From Bacteroidales bacterium (lineage in GTDB: Bacteria; Bacteroidota; Bacteroidia; Bacteroidales; VadinHA17): a stretch of DNA of 46,667 bases. Shown in pieces: positions 15,769-29,100 of this stretch. Position numbers and translations under genes: made by a program. The stretch is taken from positions 1 to 46,667 of the forward strand of contig JAMOUS010000112.1 in the NCBI GenBank assembly GCA_027067975.1, in the 5' to 3' direction. A model generated the notes under the pieces. That model searched no databases. It worked only from the letters and a program-made list of their open reading frames with translations, and was not told where the DNA came from. Each line of letters starts with the position of its first letter. Position 1 is the stretch's first letter.

Positions 15769-16265
15769 AGGAAAAGACCCTCTCGATCATTGTGGCGGTG
15801 GCCGAGAACATGGCCATTGGCAAGGATAATCAGCTCTTGTGGTACATCTCCGATGATCTGAAGCGTTTCAAGCGCATCACCTCCGGCCATCCGGTGATCA
15901 TGGGGAAGCGTACATGGGAGTCGTTGCCGGTGCGGCCGTTGCCGGGGCGGATGAACATCGTCCTCACGGATGTGCCGGGCGAGGAGATCGAAGGAGCCGT
16001 GACCGTGCATTCCCTGGAAGAGGCGGTGGAGCGCTGCCCGGCGGGGGAGGAGTGCTTCATCATCGGCGGCGGGTCGGTGTACCGCCAGTTCCTGCCCTTT
16101 GCCGACAAGCTCTATATCACCCGGGTGAACCGGGCTTTCGAGGCCGACACTTTCTTCCCGGAGATCAATGAAAAAGAATGGAAACTGGTCTCGCGCGAGG
16201 AGATCCGCGATGACCCCTCCGTGCCCTTTACCTACGACTACCTCATCTATGAGCGGTACGGGTAA
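15765..16265 (+). CDS. folA: Dihydrofolate reductase
   Basis: 166 aa with [18 protein letters not shown] and GRKTWESL motifs. It overlaps thyA by 4 nt. Confidence 0.95.
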
Positions 16266-16368
16266 TTTTTTTCTTCCCCATTAAACCTTTTTTGTTTTCG
16301 GGAGTCCAAAGGGTGGTTGCCTGGAAAAAGGGCAATGTATGAGATGTGTACCTAAAAAAAAGAAAACT

Positions 16369-17253
16369 ATGAGAACGAGAAATTGGATCTTCATGATGTT
16401 GCTGGCGGCAGGGACCGGGTTTTTGTTCACCTCCTGCCAGAAGGAAGAGGGCACGGATGCACCTTCCATTTCGAAAGACGAGGTGGCCACGGTGGAAGAT
16501 AACACCCTGATGGAAGCCTTGCTGGATGATGCGATGGACGAGGCCGACCGTGCCGTGATGACGGTGGACGACTGGATTTTCAACAGCGAAGGGTCGACCC
16601 TCAAGTCGGCCATGGTCGACACCTGTCCCAAGATCACGGTCGACCGGCCGGACAGTACGCGGTGGCCGAAGGTGATCACCATTGATTACGGGGATCTCTG
16701 TACCGGTTTTAACGGACACACCCGCAGCGGCAAGATCGTCATCACCATTTGGGGCCGTTATATGAAGCCGGGTTCCAAACGGGTGGTAGAGCTGGTCGAT
16801 TATTATGTCAACGGCATCCATGTGGAAGGCACGCGTACCGTGATGAACGAAGGCCGCAACGACAACGGGAATCTGGTGTTCAGTGTCGAGCTGAAGGATG
16901 GCAAGATCACACGGAACGACACCACTTTCATGACGCGTGAATATGTCCGGTTCCGTGAATGGGTCAACGGCGAGAAGACACGCAACCGCTGGGACGATGT
17001 CTTCTTCATCACGGGAGAGTCGTCGGGAGTGAACTTCCGCGGCCACACCTATCACAAGACCATCGTCAACCCGCTGGAGTGGGCTCGTAGCTGCCGTTTC
17101 ATCAAGAGCGGGACGGTCTCCATCCGCATCGACGACCGTCCGCCGGTGATCCTCGACTATGGTGACGGTACCTGTGACAACAAGGCCACCCTCACCCGCA
17201 ACGGCGTCACCAAAGAGATCCTCCTGAAATACCACAGGAAAAGAAAACCCTGA
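16369..17253 (+). CDS. Hypothetical lipoprotein
   Basis: The ORF starts at 16339. The ATG at 16369 gives MRTRNWIFMMLLAAGTGFLFTSC (lipobox). I recognise no family. Confidence 0.65.
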   Translation: MRTRNWIFMMLLAAGTGFLFTSCQKEEGTDAPSISKDEVATVEDNTLMEALLDDAMDEADRAVMTVDDWIFNSEGSTLKSAMVDTCPKITVDRPDSTRWPKVITIDYGDLCTGFNGHTRSGKIVITIWGRYMKPGSKRVVELVDYYVNGIHVEGTRTVMNEGRNDNGNLVFSVELKDGKITRNDTTFMTREYVRFREWVNGEKTRNRWDDVFFITGESSGVNFRGHTYHKTIVNPLEWARSCRFIKSGTVSIRIDDRPPVILDYGDGTCDNKATLTRNGVTKEILLKYHRKRKP

Positions 17254-17445: not shown

Positions 17446-18231
17446 TCAGGAGGAAGGGTCTGCGCGGAGGTTTCGGAGGAAGTTCCGTGTGGCCTGCTCG
17501 ATATCGGAGGCTTTTTCAAGGGCTTTGATATAGGCGCTCCCGACGATGGCGCCGTGAAGATGGCGGGTGGCCTGGCGGTATGTGATCGCGTTGGAGATGC
17601 CGAAACCCGCCACGAGGGGGGTCTTCAGCCCCAGGGTGGCCAGACGTTTGAAATAGGCAAGTTGCTCTTCGGAGAAGGTGTCACGGACCCCCGTGGTCGC
17701 CCGGGAAGAGACGACGTACAAAAATCCTTCGCCGTGTTCGTCGAGGAAGCGGATCCGTTCTTCCGGTGTCTGAGGGGTGAGGAGGAAAATGTTCTTCAGA
17801 TCGTGTTCCCGGAAGATCTTCAGGTGTTTTTCAAGGTATTCTTCGGGGGGAAGGTCGGGGATGATCAAGCCGTCGATGCCGGCGGCGGCCGCGTCGTGGC
17901 AAAGGCGTTCCAGACCGTAGCGGAGGATGGGGTTCAGGTAGCTCATCAGCAGCAGGGGGACCGTGTTCCCGTTGCGGACTTCTTCCAGTTGTTCAAGGAT
18001 CCTGTGCAAGGTGATGCCGTTGTCGAGGGCGCGGCGGCTGCTCTGTTGGATCACCGGACCGTCGGCTACGGGATCCGAAAAGGGGACGCCCACTTCGATC
18101 ATGTCGGCCCCGTGGCGTCCCAGGGCCCGGATCACGCTGGCGGTGCTCTCCCGTTCCGGAAAGCCCGCCGTGAAATAGACGGAGAGGATGTTCTGCTTTT
18201 TTTCCCGGAAAAGGCGGTCGATTCGGTTCAT
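17446..18231 (-). CDS. trpA: Tryptophan synthase alpha chain
   Basis: The track ORF runs to 18729, but the upstream part overlaps trpB. The ATG at 18231 gives MNRIDRLFREKKQNILSVYFTAGFP..., 261 aa, a canonical TrpA. Confidence 0.95.
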   Translation of the reverse strand: MNRIDRLFREKKQNILSVYFTAGFPERESTASVIRALGRHGADMIEVGVPFSDPVADGPVIQQSSRRALDNGITLHRILEQLEEVRNGNTVPLLLMSYLNPILRYGLERLCHDAAAAGIDGLIIPDLPPEEYLEKHLKIFREHDLKNIFLLTPQTPEERIRFLDEHGEGFLYVVSSRATTGVRDTFSEEQLAYFKRLATLGLKTPLVAGFGISNAITYRQATRHLHGAIVGSAYIKALEKASDIEQATRNFLRNLRADPSS

Positions 18232-18262
18232 AGGGCAGGAAATTTTTTTTGCTGTGCAGGGG

Positions 18263-19456
18263 TCATTCCCCGATGTGTTTGAGGATGGTTTCCATGTCTT
18301 TGTCTCCCCGTCCGGAGAGGTTGATGATGATATGGTCGTCGGCGGTGAAGGGGATCTTTTCGAGGAGGGCGAGGGCGTGGGCCGACTCGAGGGCTGGGAT
18401 GATGCCTTCGAGGCGGGCGAGGAGGCGGGTGGCGGCGAGGGCTTCGTCGTCGGTGACGGCATAGAAGGCGGCGCGGCCCGTGGCGTGCAGGTGGCTGAGC
18501 AGGGGGCCGATGCCGGGGTAGTCGAGGCCGGCGGAGACGGAGTAGGGTTCGGTGATCTGGCCGTCGTCGTCCTGGATGACGTAGGAGCGGCAGCCGTGGA
18601 GGATGCCGGTGCGGCCGAGGGCGATGGTGGCGGCGGTGTGGCCGGTGGCGACACCCTGGCCGCCGGCCTCGGCGGCGAGAAGGCGTACCTGCGGCTTGTC
18701 GAGATAATGGTAAAAGACGCCGGAGGCATTGCTGCCGCCGCCGACGCAGGCCAGCACGGCGTCGGGAAGGTCGCGTCCGCTCTGGCGGGGGAATTGCCAC
18801 AGCAGCTCTTCGCTGATGACCGACTGCAGACGGGCCACCAGGTCGGGATAGGGATGGGGCCCTACCGTCGAGCCGATGAGGTAGTAGGTCTCTTCGGGGT
18901 GGGTGATCCAGTCGCGCAGCGCCTCGTTGACGGCATCCTTGAGGGTTTGGTTGCCCGAATGTACCGGCACCACGGTGGCGCCGAGGAGCTTCATCCGCTC
19001 GACGTTGGGACGTTGGCGCTGCACGTCGAGGGCGCCCATGTACACCGTGCAGCTCATGCCCATGCGGGCGCAGACGGTGGCCGTGGCGACGCCGTGCTGG
19101 CCTGCGCCCGTCTCGGCGATGATGCGGCGTTTGCCCAGACGCTGCGCCAGGAGGATCTGTCCCAGCGCATTGTTGATCTTGTGGGCGCCCGTATGGGTGA
19201 GGTCCTCGCGCTTGAGATAGACATGAGTGCCGTAATGAGAAGAGAGCCGTGCGGCCGGGTACAAGGGGGTGGGCCGTCCGGCATAGTCGTTCAACAGGCG
19301 GCGGTACTCTTCCCGGAAAGCCGAGTCTTCAAGGATATCCAGATACTTCTCCTGCAGCTCTTTCACATTGGGATAGAGCATTTCCGGCACATAAGCGCCG
19401 CCGAAGTCACCGTAAAAGCCTTTCTCGTCGGGATGGAAAGAGGTTTGGGTTTTCAT
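18263..19456 (-). CDS. trpB: Tryptophan synthase beta chain
   Basis: 397 aa. HTGAHKINN holds the PLP lysine, with GGGSNA and the overall TrpB pattern. Confidence 0.97.
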
Positions 19457-22500: not shown

Positions 22501-23898
22501 TTACAGTTGTTCGGCGATGCGGATGGCTTTTTTGAGGGCGGCCAGTTTGTTGTTGACCTCCTGCAGTTCGTTCTCTTCGTGTGAGCGGCTGACGATGCCG
22601 GCGCCGGCCTGGTAGAAGAGGGTGTTGTCTTTGCTGAGGAAGGAGCGGATCATGATGGCATGGTTGAGGTTGCCGTTGGCGTGGAGAAAGCCGATGGCGC
22701 CGCCGTAGAAGCCGCGGGCGGTGGGTTCGTAGTCGTCGATGAGCTGCATGGCGCGGTACTTGGGAGCGCCGGTGAGGGTGCCGGCGGGGAAGGTGGCACC
22801 GAACATGGCGGTAGCGGAAGCCTCGTCGTCGAGGCGGGCCGAGACGGTGGAGACCATGTGGATGACGTGGGAATAGAACTGGATCTCACGCAGTTGTTCC
22901 ACGCGCACATCACGGCCGTAACGGCTCAGGTCGTTGCGTGCCAGGTCGACCAGCATGATGTGTTCGGCATTCTCTTTCTCGTTGCCGGCCAGCTCCAGGG
23001 CTCTTTTCTTGTCCTCTTCGTCATTGCCGGTGCGGCGGAAGGTGCCGGCGATGGGGTTGATGTAGGCCCGGCCGCCGGCGATCTTCAGGTGTGTCTCGGG
23101 CGAGGAGCCGAAGATACGGTAGTCGCCATAGTCGAAATAAAAAAGGTAGGGAGAGGGGTTCACCGACCGCAGGGCACGGTAAAGGGTGAAATCGTCCCCC
23201 TCGAAAGGTTGCTCGAAACGGCGCGAGAGGACGATCTGGAACACGTCGCCGCGGTAACAGTGTTGCTTGCCCTTTTTGACCATCTCCAGGTACTGTTCGT
23301 CGGTGAGGTTGGAGCGTTCCGGCCCGGTGGTGCGGAAGGAGCCGGTGGTGACGCTCATCTTGGCAATGAACATGGCCAGTCGGTCGATGCCGGGCTCATC
23401 CCCATCAAAAAGGTTCTCCGCCAGCGTCATGGTGTTGTTGAAGTGGTTGATGGTGATGACATAGCGGTAAAGAGTGTAACGTATGTCGGGGATACGGCTC
23501 TTGGGGTCGGCGGGGGCACGGAGGCGGAGGGTCTCGAAATACTGCACGGCATCGTAGGCGGTGTAGCCGAAGAAGCCGTTGGCGGGGGAGGCGTCGTCGC
23601 CGGCAAAGTCGAAACGCCGCATGAAACGGTCGAGCAGCGGAGCAAAGGAGCCTTCCACTTTCTGTTCGGGCAGCAGCGCTCCGCGTATCTCCTCCTGCAG
23701 GGTGAAGTCTTTCACCGTTACCGACGCCAGGGGTTCGAGGCAGAGGATCGAGAGGCTGTCCTCGCTGCTGTGGTAATCGGAGCTCTCCAGGAGGATGGTG
23801 CGGGGGAAGATCTCCCGCAGCTGCAGGTAAAGCGCCACCGGCGTGGTGGTGTCGGCAAGCAGTTGCCGGATGTGGGTCGTGATGCGGTATCTTTCCAT
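22501..23898 (-). CDS. trpE: Anthranilate synthase component I
   Basis: 465 aa with chorismate-binding motifs (SPETHL, GTLTGAPK, GGAIG). LLESS near the N-terminus resembles the Trp-feedback site motif. Confidence 0.95.
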   Translation of the reverse strand: MERYRITTHIRQLLADTTTPVALYLQLREIFPRTILLESSDYHSSEDSLSILCLEPLASVTVKDFTLQEEIRGALLPEQKVEGSFAPLLDRFMRRFDFAGDDASPANGFFGYTAYDAVQYFETLRLRAPADPKSRIPDIRYTLYRYVITINHFNNTMTLAENLFDGDEPGIDRLAMFIAKMSVTTGSFRTTGPERSNLTDEQYLEMVKKGKQHCYRGDVFQIVLSRRFEQPFEGDDFTLYRALRSVNPSPYLFYFDYGDYRIFGSSPETHLKIAGGRAYINPIAGTFRRTGNDEEDKKRALELAGNEKENAEHIMLVDLARNDLSRYGRDVRVEQLREIQFYSHVIHMVSTVSARLDDEASATAMFGATFPAGTLTGAPKYRAMQLIDDYEPTARGFYGGAIGFLHANGNLNHAIMIRSFLSKDNTLFYQAGAGIVSRSHEENELQEVNNKLAALKKAIRIAEQL

Positions 23899-23916
23899 AA
23901 TGATCCGTTTTCCAAC

Positions 23917-23949
23917 AAAAAAGGCTTACCGTAAATCCGGTAAGCCTTT
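23917..23949 (-). terminator. Intrinsic terminator 18 nt upstream of trpE (attenuator terminator)
   Basis: Minus-strand RNA reads AAAGGCUUACCG-GAUUUA-CGGUAAGCCUUU followed by UUUGUUGG. The core 9-bp arms lie at 23938-23946 and 23923-23931, and the U6 tract at 23922-23917. Confidence 0.7.
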
Positions 23950-23976
23950 CGTTGCGTTTGCATGCCAGCTTCCTCT

Positions 23977-24036
23977 TTACGGTAAAGGATCTTTATCGTA
24001 AAGCCACCACCAGCATGTATTTTTTGCAAAGGTCAT
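23977..24036 (-). CDS. trpL: trp operon leader peptide, 19 aa: MTFAKNTCWWWLYDKDPLP
   Basis: My own translation of the minus strand gives ATG at 24036-24034, TGG TGG TGG at 24012-24004 and TAA at 23979-23977. It is too short for the ORF track. It sits between a promoter-like element and the terminator. Confidence 0.65.
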   Translation of the reverse strand: MTFAKNTCWWWLYDKDPLP

Positions 24037-24057
24037 CGTTCGTGTGCTTGACAGGAG

Positions 24058-24087
24058 CAAAAATAGAAAAAATCTCAAAAGACCAAA
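24058..24087 (-). promoter_or_regulatory. Bacteroidota-type promoter for the trp leader/operon
   Basis: On the minus strand: TTTG (24087-24084), an 18-nt spacer, then TATTTTTG (24065-24058). It begins right after the clpX stop and lies about 20 nt upstream of the leader ATG. Confidence 0.5.
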
Positions 24088-24089
24088 TC

Positions 24090-25328
24090 TCAGGCCACTT
24101 TTAATTTCCGCAAGTTGACCCCTTCGAGTTTCTCTTTGGCGTATTTGAGGGTGATGGTAAGTTTTTTCTTGTTGGTACCGGGTACGTGGAACATGGCGTC
24201 GGTCATGATGGTTTCGCAGATGGAGCGCAGGCCGCGGGCGCCGAGTTTGAACTCGATGGCTTTGTCGACGATGTAGTCGAGCACTTCCTCTTCGAAGGTG
24301 AGTTCGATGCCGTCCATCTTGAACAGTTTGATGTATTGTTTGATGATGGCGTTCTTGGGTTCGGTGAGGATGCGGCGGAGGGCGGTACGGTCGAGGGGGT
24401 GGAGGTAGGTGAGCACCGGCAGGCGGCCGATGATCTCGGGGATGAGACCATAGGCCTTGAGGTCTTGCGGGGCGATGTATTGCAGGAGGTTTTCCTTGTC
24501 GATCTGGTTGCGTTGTTTGGAGGCGCCGAAGCCCACCACCTGGGTGTTGAGACGCTGGGCGATCTTTTTCTCGATGCCGTCGAAGGCGCCGCCGCAGATG
24601 AAGAGGATGTTCTTGGTGTCGACGGGGATCATTTTTTGTTCGGGGTGTTTGCGTCCTCCCTGTGGGGGTACGTTGACCACCGAACCTTCGAGCAGTTTGA
24701 GGAGGCCCTGCTGCACGCCCTCGCCCGAGACATCGCGGGTGATGGAGGGGTTGTCGCTTTTGCGGGCGATTTTGTCGATCTCGTCGATGAAGACGATCCC
24801 TTTCTCTGCGGCCTTCACGTCGTAGTCGGCTGCCTGGAGCAGGCGTGTGAGGATGCTCTCGATGTCTTCACCCACATAACCGGCTTCGGTCAGCACTGTG
24901 GCATCGACGATGGTGAAGGGCACATGCAGCATCTTGGCGATGGTGCGAGCCAGCAGCGTCTTGCCCGTGCCGGTCTCTCCCACCAGCAGGATGTTCGATT
25001 TTTCGATCTCGATGTCATTGTCGTCGGCCGGTTGCAGCAGCCGCTTGTAGTGGTTGTACACCGCCACCGAAAGGTATTTTTTTGCCTCTTCCTGTCCGAT
25101 GACATACTGGTCGAGAAACTTCTTGATCTCGGTGGGCTTGAGTAGTTGTATATCACTGAGGTTGAAGTCGCTGCGGCCTTTCATCTCCTCCTGGAGGATG
25201 CTGTAGGCCTGCTCGATACAGTGATCGCAGATGTATCCGTTGATCCCTGAGATCAGGAGGTTCGTGTCCTTCTTTTCGCGTCCGCAGAATGAACACCGTT
25301 CCACCATCTGGTTTTGGTTTGGTTTCAT
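24090..25328 (-). CDS. clpX: ATP-dependent Clp protease ATP-binding subunit ClpX
   Basis: The ATG at 25328 gives [21 protein letters not shown]... with the zinc-finger C4 motif, Walker A GETGTGKT and the rest of the ClpX pattern. The longer track ORF overlaps the clpP 3' end. Confidence 0.95.
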
Positions 25329-25380
25329 GACAAAGTTATAAAGAATATGGCGGGAGGGAGGTGAAATGGTAAGAAAAGGA

Positions 25381-26067
25381 TCACTTTTTATTTTTTCGGA
25401 CAAGGACTTCGTCGATCATCCCGTATTTTTTGGCTTCTTCTGCGGTCATCCAGAAGTCGCGGTCGGCGTCTTTGGCCACTTTCTTCTTGGGGTTGCCGGT
25501 ATGCTCGGCGATGATGGCATAGAGTTCGTCGCGCAGTTTGATGATCTCGCGTGTGGTGATCTCGATGTCGGAAGCGGGTCCCTGGACTCCGCCCATGGGC
25601 TGGTGGATCATCACGCGGGAGTGTTTCAGGGCCGAGCGTTTGCCTTTGGTGCCGGCGCACAGCAGGATGGCGCCCATCGAGGCGGCCATGCCCGTACAGA
25701 TGGTCCCCACATCACAGCCGATGTATTGCATCGTGTCGTAGATGCCCAGGCCGGCATAGACCGAGCCGCCCGGTGTGTTCAAGTAGATCTGGATATCCTT
25801 GCCCGGATCGGACGATTCCAGATAGAGCAGCTGCGCTTCGACGATGTTGGCCACATAATCGTCGATGGCCAACCCGATGAAAATGATGCGGTCCATCATC
25901 AGTCGGGAGAAAACATCCATCGAAGCGACATTGAGCTGACGCTCCTCGATGATCGTGGGAGAGATGTAGTTGTTGTAGACCCGGGCATACTGGTCGAACG
26001 CCAGTGGGCTGATGCCCTGGTGCTTGACGGCATATTTCCTGAAGTCTTCCTGGATGTTCGTTTTCAT
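25381..26067 (-). CDS. clpP: ATP-dependent Clp protease proteolytic subunit
   Basis: 228 aa. The Ser-His-Asp context is present ([13 protein letters not shown]). Confidence 0.97.
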
Positions 26068-27659: not shown

Positions 27660-27775
27660 CAAAAAAAATTCATGCCTTGTGTGTTCAAGGGAATGATAAT
27701 GAAAGAAAAGGCATCTGTCGTGAAAGATTTTCGTAATTTTATACAGTCTATAATAATTTGTCAAAAAAGTGGCTT

Positions 27776-28666
27776 ATGAGGACGAGGTATTGGATTTTGG
27801 GAGTGATGCTGTTCCTGGCGGCTGCCTGCGGTCGTTCCCAGAGCAGGGAGCACAAGGCAGGGCAGGTGGCGTACATCAACGACACCTTGCTGGAGAAGAT
27901 CTGGGTGAGCGAGCCGGTGCTGAAGGTGCCGGAGAGTGTTTTGTATGACGGCGCGCGGAATGTGATCTATGTCTCGAACATTGAGGGCAAGCCTGCCGAG
28001 CATGACGGTCGCGGCTTCATTGCGCGGCTGGGCCCCGACGGAAAGGTGCTGCAGCGGGAATGGGTGAGCGGACTGGATGCCCCGAAGGGGCTGGGGTTGC
28101 ATGCGGGACGGTTGTACGTCTCGGACATCAACGCACTGGTGGTGATCGACGTGGCGGCGGCCAGGGTGGTGGCGCGCTACGAGGCACCGGAGGCGGTGTT
28201 TCTCAACGATGTGGCAGTGGCTTCCGACGGTACGGTATATGTCTCGGACATGGGGGCTTCGGCCGTCTACCGCCTGCAGGGGGATCGTTTTGAACGGTGG
28301 TTGCACGACGCCCGCCTGAACGGTCCCAACGGCCTCTTCGTCGAAAACGGCGCTCTCCTGGCGGGATTGAAAGACCGTATTGTGCGGATCGACACGGCCC
28401 GCCGGACGATCACCGACCTGGTGCTGCATACCGGCAGCATCGACGGCCTGGAGGGTGACGGCCGGGGAGGTTATCTCATCAGCGACTGGCGCGGCCATGT
28501 GTACCGGGTGACACCGCAAGGGGAAAAGGTGCTGCTGCTCGACACAACCCCCATCCATATGCAGGCTGCCGACATCGACTATGTCCCTTCTTCGGCAACC
28601 TTGCTGGTGCCGACATTTAACAGCAACCGTATCGTGGCCTACCGCGTGAAGTGGGGCGACCGTTAA
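27776..28666 (+). CDS. Beta-propeller-like lipoprotein (SMP-30/gluconolactonase/NHL-like)
   Basis: The ATG at 27776 gives MRTRYWILGVMLFLAAAC (lipobox). The track start at 27758 is TTG. Repeated ...YVSD.../...NG... strands suggest a propeller. The family call is tentative. Confidence 0.7.
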   Translation: MRTRYWILGVMLFLAAACGRSQSREHKAGQVAYINDTLLEKIWVSEPVLKVPESVLYDGARNVIYVSNIEGKPAEHDGRGFIARLGPDGKVLQREWVSGLDAPKGLGLHAGRLYVSDINALVVIDVAAARVVARYEAPEAVFLNDVAVASDGTVYVSDMGASAVYRLQGDRFERWLHDARLNGPNGLFVENGALLAGLKDRIVRIDTARRTITDLVLHTGSIDGLEGDGRGGYLISDWRGHVYRVTPQGEKVLLLDTTPIHMQAADIDYVPSSATLLVPTFNSNRIVAYRVKWGDR

Positions 28667-28680
28667 AGTAAAGAGCTTCC

Positions 28681-29100
28681 TTATTGAATGAACCTGATCG
28701 CAAGCGGGTAGTTCCAGAGTTCTCCCTGGGAAGCTTGTACGGCACCGACAATGGGGAAAACGATGGACATCACAGCCACTGCGATCAGTAAGGGGAGCCC
28801 GATCAGCAGGAGGGTGAGGAGCAGGCTGATGACAAGATAGATGATCATGCTGATGATCCAGTTCATGACCATCTTTCCGTGACGGTCGACTTCCGGGAAC
28901 TCTTCCCGGTTGGTGAGCCACATCACCAAAGGCAGGATCAGCCCGGCGAGGGGGGCCAGCCATCCGGCGAGCTGGCTCAGATGGAGGAGCGTCAGGAAAG
29001 AATTCATCTCCATCCCCCACGGCCTGGCCCCGGAAGGGGAGACGGGGTTTTGTGTTTCGCGGGTTTCCTGTGGGGGGGTGGGTCGTCCGGCATTTTCCAT
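28681..29100 (-). CDS. DUF4870-type small membrane protein
   Basis: The C-terminal two-thirds are hydrophobic helices with a pattern like DUF4870 (…MNWIISMIIYLV…FPIVGAVQASQGELWNYPLAIRF). ATG lies at 29100. The track start at 29130 is a TTG that would overlap lptB by 4 nt. Confidence 0.75.
   Translation of the reverse strand: MENAGRPTPPQETRETQNPVSPSGARPWGMEMNSFLTLLHLSQLAGWLAPLAGLILPLVMWLTNREEFPEVDRHGKMVMNWIISMIIYLVISLLLTLLLIGLPLLIAVAVMSIVFPIVGAVQASQGELWNYPLAIRFIQ

Follow-up and report, generated by a model that had tools for sequence, protein, structure and literature searches.

The window, a 46,667-nt stretch of a Bacteroidales contig, carries on its minus strand trpE followed in order by trpG, trpD, trpC, trpF, trpB and trpA (profile matches), with clpX upstream. 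The clpX stop codon TGA occupies 24092-24090, and the trpE ATG lies at 23898, 18 nt past a run of six T at 23922-23917. The features of the two genes and of the interval between them are as follows, in the direction of transcription:

24090-25403, minus strand: clpX (NF003745, 610 bits), upstream neighbour of the trp leader
24084-24087, minus strand: TTTG, putative -33-like box of a Bacteroidota-type promoter (direct read)
24058-24065, minus strand: TATTTTTG, putative -7 box matching the consensus TAnnTTTG, with the leader ATG 21 nt further on
23977-24036, minus strand: leader ORF MTFAKNTCWWWLYDKDPLP, 19 codons plus TAA, with ATG at 24036 and TAA at 23979-23977 (direct read and homologues)
24004-24012, minus strand: TGG TGG TGG, putative regulatory codons (direct read)
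23997-24017, minus strand: region 1, CAUGCUGGU (24017-24009) and CUUUACG (24003-23997), the 5' strands of a leader hairpin in minimum free energy (MFE) folds
23961-23986, minus strand: region 2, with the leader stop codon, predicted by folding to pair with region 1 or with the terminator
23926-23946, minus strand: predicted antiterminator 3' strand, GGCUUaCC (23946-23939) plus UUUACGGUAA (23935-23926), from nascent-transcript folds with a ribosome at the third Trp codon (W3)
23920-23949, minus strand: hairpin of an intrinsic terminator (−20.1 kcal/mol), whose 12-bp stem includes 6 G-C pairs and closes a 6-nt loop
23914-23922, minus strand: U-tract UUUUUUGUU (direct read), whose first three U can pair with AAA at 23949-23947
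22501-23898, minus strand: trpE (TIGR00564, 407 bits), first gene of trpE-G-D-C-F-B-A and putative regulated target

An initial annotation had proposed the promoter boxes, the ORF with its three Trp codons, the hairpin with six U and the short spacing to trpE, and our read of the minus strand found every one of them where it had been placed.

Farther upstream, the minus strand reads tRNA (27641-27560), trigger factor (27486-26101), clpP (26067-25381), clpX (25403-24090) and then the trp leader. At the distal end of the operon, the trpA ORF (17446-18729, minus strand) measures 427 aa mechanically; since the TrpA match spans residues 174-415 only, the true trpA start should be internal, near the trpB end at 18263. 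Two minus-strand ORFs flanking the region, 16243-17235 (330 aa) and 27761-29020 (419 aa), have no Pfam match, and the 330-aa ORF has no NCBIfam match. A 103-aa ORF starting with TTG (23718-24029) and an antisense ORF of 424 aa (22660-23934) overlap trpE and were rejected as artefacts. TrpE homologues put the window in an uncultured Bacteroidales lineage, its nearest neighbours being Rikenellaceae and Bacteroidales MAGs; the best TrpE identity, 79%, is to a MAG labelled Rikenellaceae.

Folding of the 152-nt leader RNA gave an MFE of −51.1 kcal/mol (z = −5.5), a stability that none of 200 dinucleotide shuffles attained. The unconstrained fold consists of a leader hairpin, with an outer and an inner stem, plus the terminator. 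Region 2 enters the leader hairpin through CGUAAAG (23981-23975), which pairs with CUUUACG to form the inner stem that the initial annotation had proposed, and through GCUGGCAUG (23969-23961), which pairs with CAUGCUGGU to form the outer stem. Toward the terminator, the same region presents UUACCGUAAA (23985-23976) or GGAAGCU (23973-23967) as pairing strands. The terminator is built from AAAGGCUUACCG (23949-23938), the loop GAUUUA and CGGUAAGCCUUU (23931-23920), with a 9-bp core formed by 23946-23938 and 23931-23923. Within the antiterminator 3' strand, GGCUUaCC is the terminator 5' arm, and UUUACGGUAA comprises the loop and the early 3' arm. The perfect complementarity initially claimed for a strand spanning the leader stop codon was confirmed, UUACCGUAAA being the exact reverse complement of UUUACGGUAA. 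A terminator scan listed the hairpin on the plus strand only, most likely because the G-U extension of the stem consumes the T-tail; the minus-strand hairpin was confirmed by eye and by its energy.

We compared the window with 80 loci from Bacteroidota genomes, 80 metagenome loci and 10 close contigs obtained by exact-protein look-up. No relative above 59% TrpE identity emerged from the metagenome scan, and the close relatives (67-79% identity) came from the exact-protein look-ups. Short ORFs were defined as starting with ATG, spanning at most 45 codons and containing WW, and were counted in loci with enough upstream sequence. A conserved Trp-rich ORF in relatives, on which the initial annotation had made its reading depend, was found: of 161 Bacteroidota loci, 138 carry a short ORF with WW, WWW or WWWW ahead of trpE; the reverse complements of these 161 regions yielded none, and the 596 control windows yielded 20 (3%). 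The stricter WWW form was present in 109 of the 161 related upstream regions and in a single one of the 596 control windows. Of 147 loci with TGGTGG, 142 have it inside an ORF that starts with ATG and is read in the Trp frame, compared with 1 and 36 loci for the other two frames, which argues for translation rather than for an RNA motif. Homologous leader ORFs include MTFIKNTCWWWLYDKETLP (L004) and MKRNYTYWWWLYGNLTLP (L001), and the leader peptides of the close clade follow the form ...NTCWWWLYDK..LP.

Several loci depart from the WWW arrangement. In one close relative (L168, about 1290-1500), WCW (TGG TGC TGG) replaces WWW and the leader is otherwise conserved; the leader of L065 has WYW, and several Rikenellaceae-like loci have WCWW or WRWW. 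Tandem complete leader units, each with its own W-rich ORF and terminator, precede trpE in L054 (2190-2503), in L021 (2170-2503, Maribellus maritimus) and in L022. The tandem ORFs are MIIQNTNWWWLIYNSDKS and MKAIVNTKFWWWHIFVRNKVVR in L054, and MKKLNTIWLPWWGLLT and MKLINKNIWWWQSNFLQNREEK in Maribellus maritimus. Such tandem attenuators would sharpen the response to Trp. In addition, a Bacteroidales small SRP RNA match (RF04183, 75.6 bits) lies upstream of the trp locus of an Ohtaekwangia MAG (L034, 1171-1273).

The same arrangement of clpX, promoter, leader, terminator and trpE recurs in 13 distinct sequences of the close clade, and the clpX-leader-trpE linkage is kept in 37 loci, window included. 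The spacer between TTTG and TATTTTTG is 18 nt in the window. Close relatives also carry TTTG 17-19 nt upstream of the -7 box, and the TAnnTTTG motif of this box has no mismatch in 11 of the 13 distinct sequences. At 63 of 147 loci TAnnTTTG occurs no more than 70 nt upstream of the leader start, compared with 34 of 2205 background windows. Conservation of this motif ahead of the leader indicates that the leader has its own promoter, and transcription most likely starts a few bases downstream of 24058, from the TTTG/TAnnTTTG pair. A sigma-70 promoter scan found nothing; its model is irrelevant to Bacteroidota promoters.

Base pairing is well conserved in the close clade. Among the 13 relatives, the terminator is paired in 97.4% of alignment cells, with one compensatory pair (AU, GC, CG), and the inner leader helix in 96.7%. 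For the 10-bp antiterminator the paired fraction is 95.8%, and it drops to 25-52% when the partner strand is slid by 1-3 columns. The compensatory stem changes anticipated by the initial annotation were thus borne out by one pair in the terminator but not in the 10-bp antiterminator, where the 13 closest relatives show no two-sided change and only wobble-compatible single ones. The close-clade data on this helix are conservation, not covariation.

Since covariation of the antiterminator within the clade was uninformative, we turned to complementarity tests that need no alignment and span the phylum. In the duplex test, the leader segment left free past a ribosome on the last Trp codon was paired with the terminator 5' arm, loop and half of the 3' arm, for the 142 loci that possess a hairpin of −10 kcal/mol or lower and a U-run between leader and trpE. 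The median antiterminator duplex energy was −17.2 kcal/mol, compared with −10.9 kcal/mol for dinucleotide-shuffled leaders, and 77% of the 142 loci reached p <= 0.05. Leaders paired with the terminators of unrelated loci gave a median of −12.5 kcal/mol (Wilcoxon p = 1e-24). The sequences themselves differ by clade while their complementarity is kept, as in UUACCGUAAA:UUUACGGUAA of the window, UACCGUGAG:CUCACGGUA of L009, CCGCUGUGUAGCAG:CUGUACACAGCGG of a Chitinophaga locus (L041) and UAAUUGUGUCG:CGACACAAUUG of L148. At 126 of the 142 loci, the 5' strand of the antiterminator shares nucleotides with the leader stop codon. By contrast, the corresponding test for region 1 against region 2 is weak across the family, with 22.5% of loci at p <= 0.05 and p = 0.12 for the window; within the close clade, window included, the hairpin they form is evident from the MFE fold and from the pairing of the 13 relatives.

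For the folding of nascent transcripts, 24021-23992 were masked to represent a ribosome whose A site is occupied by the third UGG. With RNA out to 23942-23932, pairing of GGAAGCU (23973-23967) with GGCUUaCC (23946-23939) is already the predicted MFE structure. When the RNA extends to 23930-23924, the UUACCGUAAA:UUUACGGUAA helix is added together with one G-U pair, and the antiterminator reaches 11 + 7 bp by 23924. The terminator overtakes it in energy only once its whole 3' arm is out, at 23922. In folds without a ribosome, region 2 stays locked in the persisting leader hairpin, and nucleation of the terminator is immediate. The 10-bp UUACCGUAAA:UUUACGGUAA helix alone accounts for −9.1 kcal/mol, and the composite antiterminator duplex of the window for −20.3 kcal/mol, compared with −10.7 kcal/mol for shuffled leaders (p = 0.01). 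The 10-bp antiterminator put forward initially is therefore correct but incomplete, as the 5' arm is captured first by another helix, formed by 23973-23967 and 23946-23939.

Masked nascent folds of the 142 loci behaved in the same manner. At least half of the terminator 5' arm was captured in 101 loci with the ribosome at W, in 28 with the ribosome at the stop codon and in 29 without a ribosome. Together with the stop-codon overlap, these folds support the initial proposal that a stalled ribosome would free the antiterminator and that a ribosome at the stop codon would mask it; with the stop codon inside the antiterminator strand, a ribosome finishing the peptide would cover that strand. A comparison of the two states, which the initial annotation had suggested, came out differently with transcript length: the antiterminator is preferred in nascent RNA with a stalled ribosome, but the full-length RNA still favours the terminator (−20.1 kcal/mol) with region 1 masked, a result we counted against the model. 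As the terminator wins at equilibrium even with a simulated stalled ribosome, the switch would have to be kinetic, and a purely thermodynamic switch was rejected in favour of a co-transcriptional one.

We conclude that the element is very probably a ribosome-mediated transcription attenuator of trpEGDCFBA and a member of the Bacteroid-trp family. In the proposed mechanism, the 19-codon leader would be translated while RNA polymerase moves on. When Trp-tRNA is plentiful, the ribosome would reach UAA at 23979-23977 and sit on region 2 (23986-23961), and after its release region 2 would re-pair with region 1. With region 2 unavailable, the 12-bp hairpin (23949-23920) and the U-tract would halt transcription 18 nt ahead of trpE. 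If Trp-tRNA runs short, the ribosome would stall at UGG UGG UGG (24012-24004) and cover region 1, which falls under a ribosome stalled on these codons, and region 2 would be freed. Free GGAAGCU (23973-23967) would then catch the emerging 5' arm GGCUUaCC (23946-23939), and UUACCGUAAA (23985-23976) would next zip onto the loop and early 3' arm (23935-23926), so that the terminator is pre-empted and polymerase reads into trpE. In these predicted structures the antiterminator is mutually exclusive with the terminator and would be available only upon a stall at the Trp codons. Underlying the model are sequence elements read directly, the extent to which they are conserved and alternative structures predicted by folding; from this model we infer a coupling of translation to transcription and a response to Trp.

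Attenuators in Bacteroidetes/Chlorobi were reportedly predicted by Vitreschak et al. in 2004. In the literature searched, we found no study that tested Trp attenuation experimentally in Bacteroidota. The Bacteroid-trp leader motif (Rfam RF01692) was described upstream of trpB and trpE in Bacteroidetes, with at least two UGG codons conserved, a structure termed 'a loosely conserved hairpin' and presumed attenuation, and with neither a consensus drawing nor an antiterminator (Weinberg et al. 2010, Genome Biol 11:R31, PMC2864571, Additional file 1). The element is thus not new in kind. The initial annotation was right that ORF callers miss it, as no gene is called between clpX and trpE in any of the 10 related contigs, but its suggestion that such leaders had been overlooked does not stand beside RF01692. 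On the window, RF01692 gives no match at its gathering threshold (49 bits), nor at E <= 10 on 23800-24200. It passes threshold in 7 of 40 related loci tested (L009, L119, L125, L130, L137, L156 and L158), mostly A+T-rich ones. A covariance model made from the window's 13-sequence clade, termed R1, matches 72 of 79 other loci directly before trpE (E < 0.01) and recovers all seven RF01692-positive loci with 39-57 bits, indicating that the window element is a divergent member of the same family. In a Rikenellaceae MAG (L076), the R1 match lies 1.2 kb upstream, before trpB. There, at 1140-1330, a WWW leader MNLYFSNIWWWRLQLLKS and a terminator precede a trpB-like gene upstream of trpE, in agreement with the trpB association noted by Weinberg et al.

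The window shares with RF01692 the phylum, the position before trpE (or trpB), at least two UGG codons in a short ORF, a hairpin with the UGG run in its 5' strand and a terminator arm of the form AAAGGCUU... with a U-run after it, and its leader architecture matches the RF01692 consensus alignment of L009. It differs in that the Rfam model gives it no score, and in that the antiterminator with its embedded stop codon has been worked out here. The enterobacterial trpL (RF00513) follows the same logic: Trp codons occur in tandem, translation stops near region 2, and antiterminator and terminator exclude each other. However, the family has three or four Trp codons rather than the two of trpL, its predicted antiterminator spans the terminator 5' arm and loop and continues into the 3' arm, an extension that trpL lacks, and the window promoter is of the TTTG/TAnnTTTG type, unlike that of trpL, with no TrpR-type operator evident. 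The RF00513 (Trp_leader) covariance model gave no window match at E <= 10, and no sequence similarity to trpL was seen either. The window element thus appears to work like E. coli trpL, and none of the tests run indicated homology between the two. Rfam scans of the window at gathering and permissive settings found no Trp-leader, T-box or riboswitch match; weak matches to SNORA12, STnc390 and PART1_3 (E = 0.8-2.4) were dismissed as chance. The trpL of Sinorhizobium meliloti (rnTrpL/peTrpL) also has a WWW leader upstream of trpE(G) and a terminator, and its released attenuator RNA and leader peptide have demonstrated functions in trans (PMC6614838, PMC7298713).

Three other readings of the locus were weighed. 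The hairpin lies 140 nt past the clpX stop, there is no other terminator between clpX and trpE, and clpX-trpE synteny holds in 37 loci, window included, all of which would fit a mere intrinsic terminator of the tig-clpP-clpX unit with a fortuitous WWW mini-ORF. We give this reading, which the initial annotation had named as its own alternative, a negligible chance. The leader ORF and hairpin precede trpE in 99 loci without clpX upstream, of which 50 have their closest upstream ORF on the other strand and 49 a co-directional one; a conserved promoter motif separates clpX from the leader; and WWW ORFs are as rare in control windows as noted above (1 of 596). Because no other terminator intervenes, the window hairpin probably also stops clpX transcripts, as an added role that does not explain the element.

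It is very improbable, too, that the leader is a translation-independent regulatory RNA, read by a TRAP-like protein, a T-box-like uncharged tRNA or a small ligand, in which the UGG run is an RNA motif. Against such a reading stand the strong preference for the Trp frame (142 of 147 loci, versus 1 and 36 in the other frames), the stop codon within the antiterminator strand in 126 of 142 loci, the lack of a match to the T-box covariance model or any other such Rfam family and the absence of a (G/U)AG repeat array, even though the UGG run forms part of a conserved hairpin strand in the window fold and the Rfam alignment, and nucleotides near it (AUACAU) are conserved as well. Leader translation might instead act on trpE mainly through Rho access or trpE translation initiation rather than the intrinsic terminator. 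Bacteroidota generally initiate translation without strong Shine-Dalgarno sites, and with trpE starting just 18 nt past the T-run the hairpin could also affect ribosome loading. However, a 12-bp G+C-rich stem with a U-tract is a canonical intrinsic terminator, and the distance from terminator to trpE ranges from 13 to about 200 nt while hairpin and U-run are kept, so we regard this reading as improbable and retain transcription attenuation.

Beyond attenuation of the operon itself, we see a small chance that three further propositions hold jointly: that the stop codon in the antiterminator strand and the invasion from 5' arm through loop to 3' arm constitute a shared Bacteroidota design not formally described; that the hairpin of the clpX clade also ends tig-clpP-clpX, readthrough adding to trp expression in starvation; and that the leader RNA of about 130 nt or the WWW peptide could act in trans like Sinorhizobium rnTrpL/peTrpL.

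The understanding of attenuation itself is unchanged by these results. Detection by RF01692 in a minority of loci (7 of 40) indicates that genome annotations systematically miss Bacteroidota Trp leaders, and a broader model such as R1, combined with the antiterminator architecture, could improve annotation. That architecture is concrete and testable in a phylum that differs from E. coli in translation initiation and coupling. Computational support from sequence comparison and predicted folds indicates that trp operons across Bacteroidota, including those of uncultured Rikenellaceae-like Bacteroidales, are very probably governed by leader-peptide attenuation.
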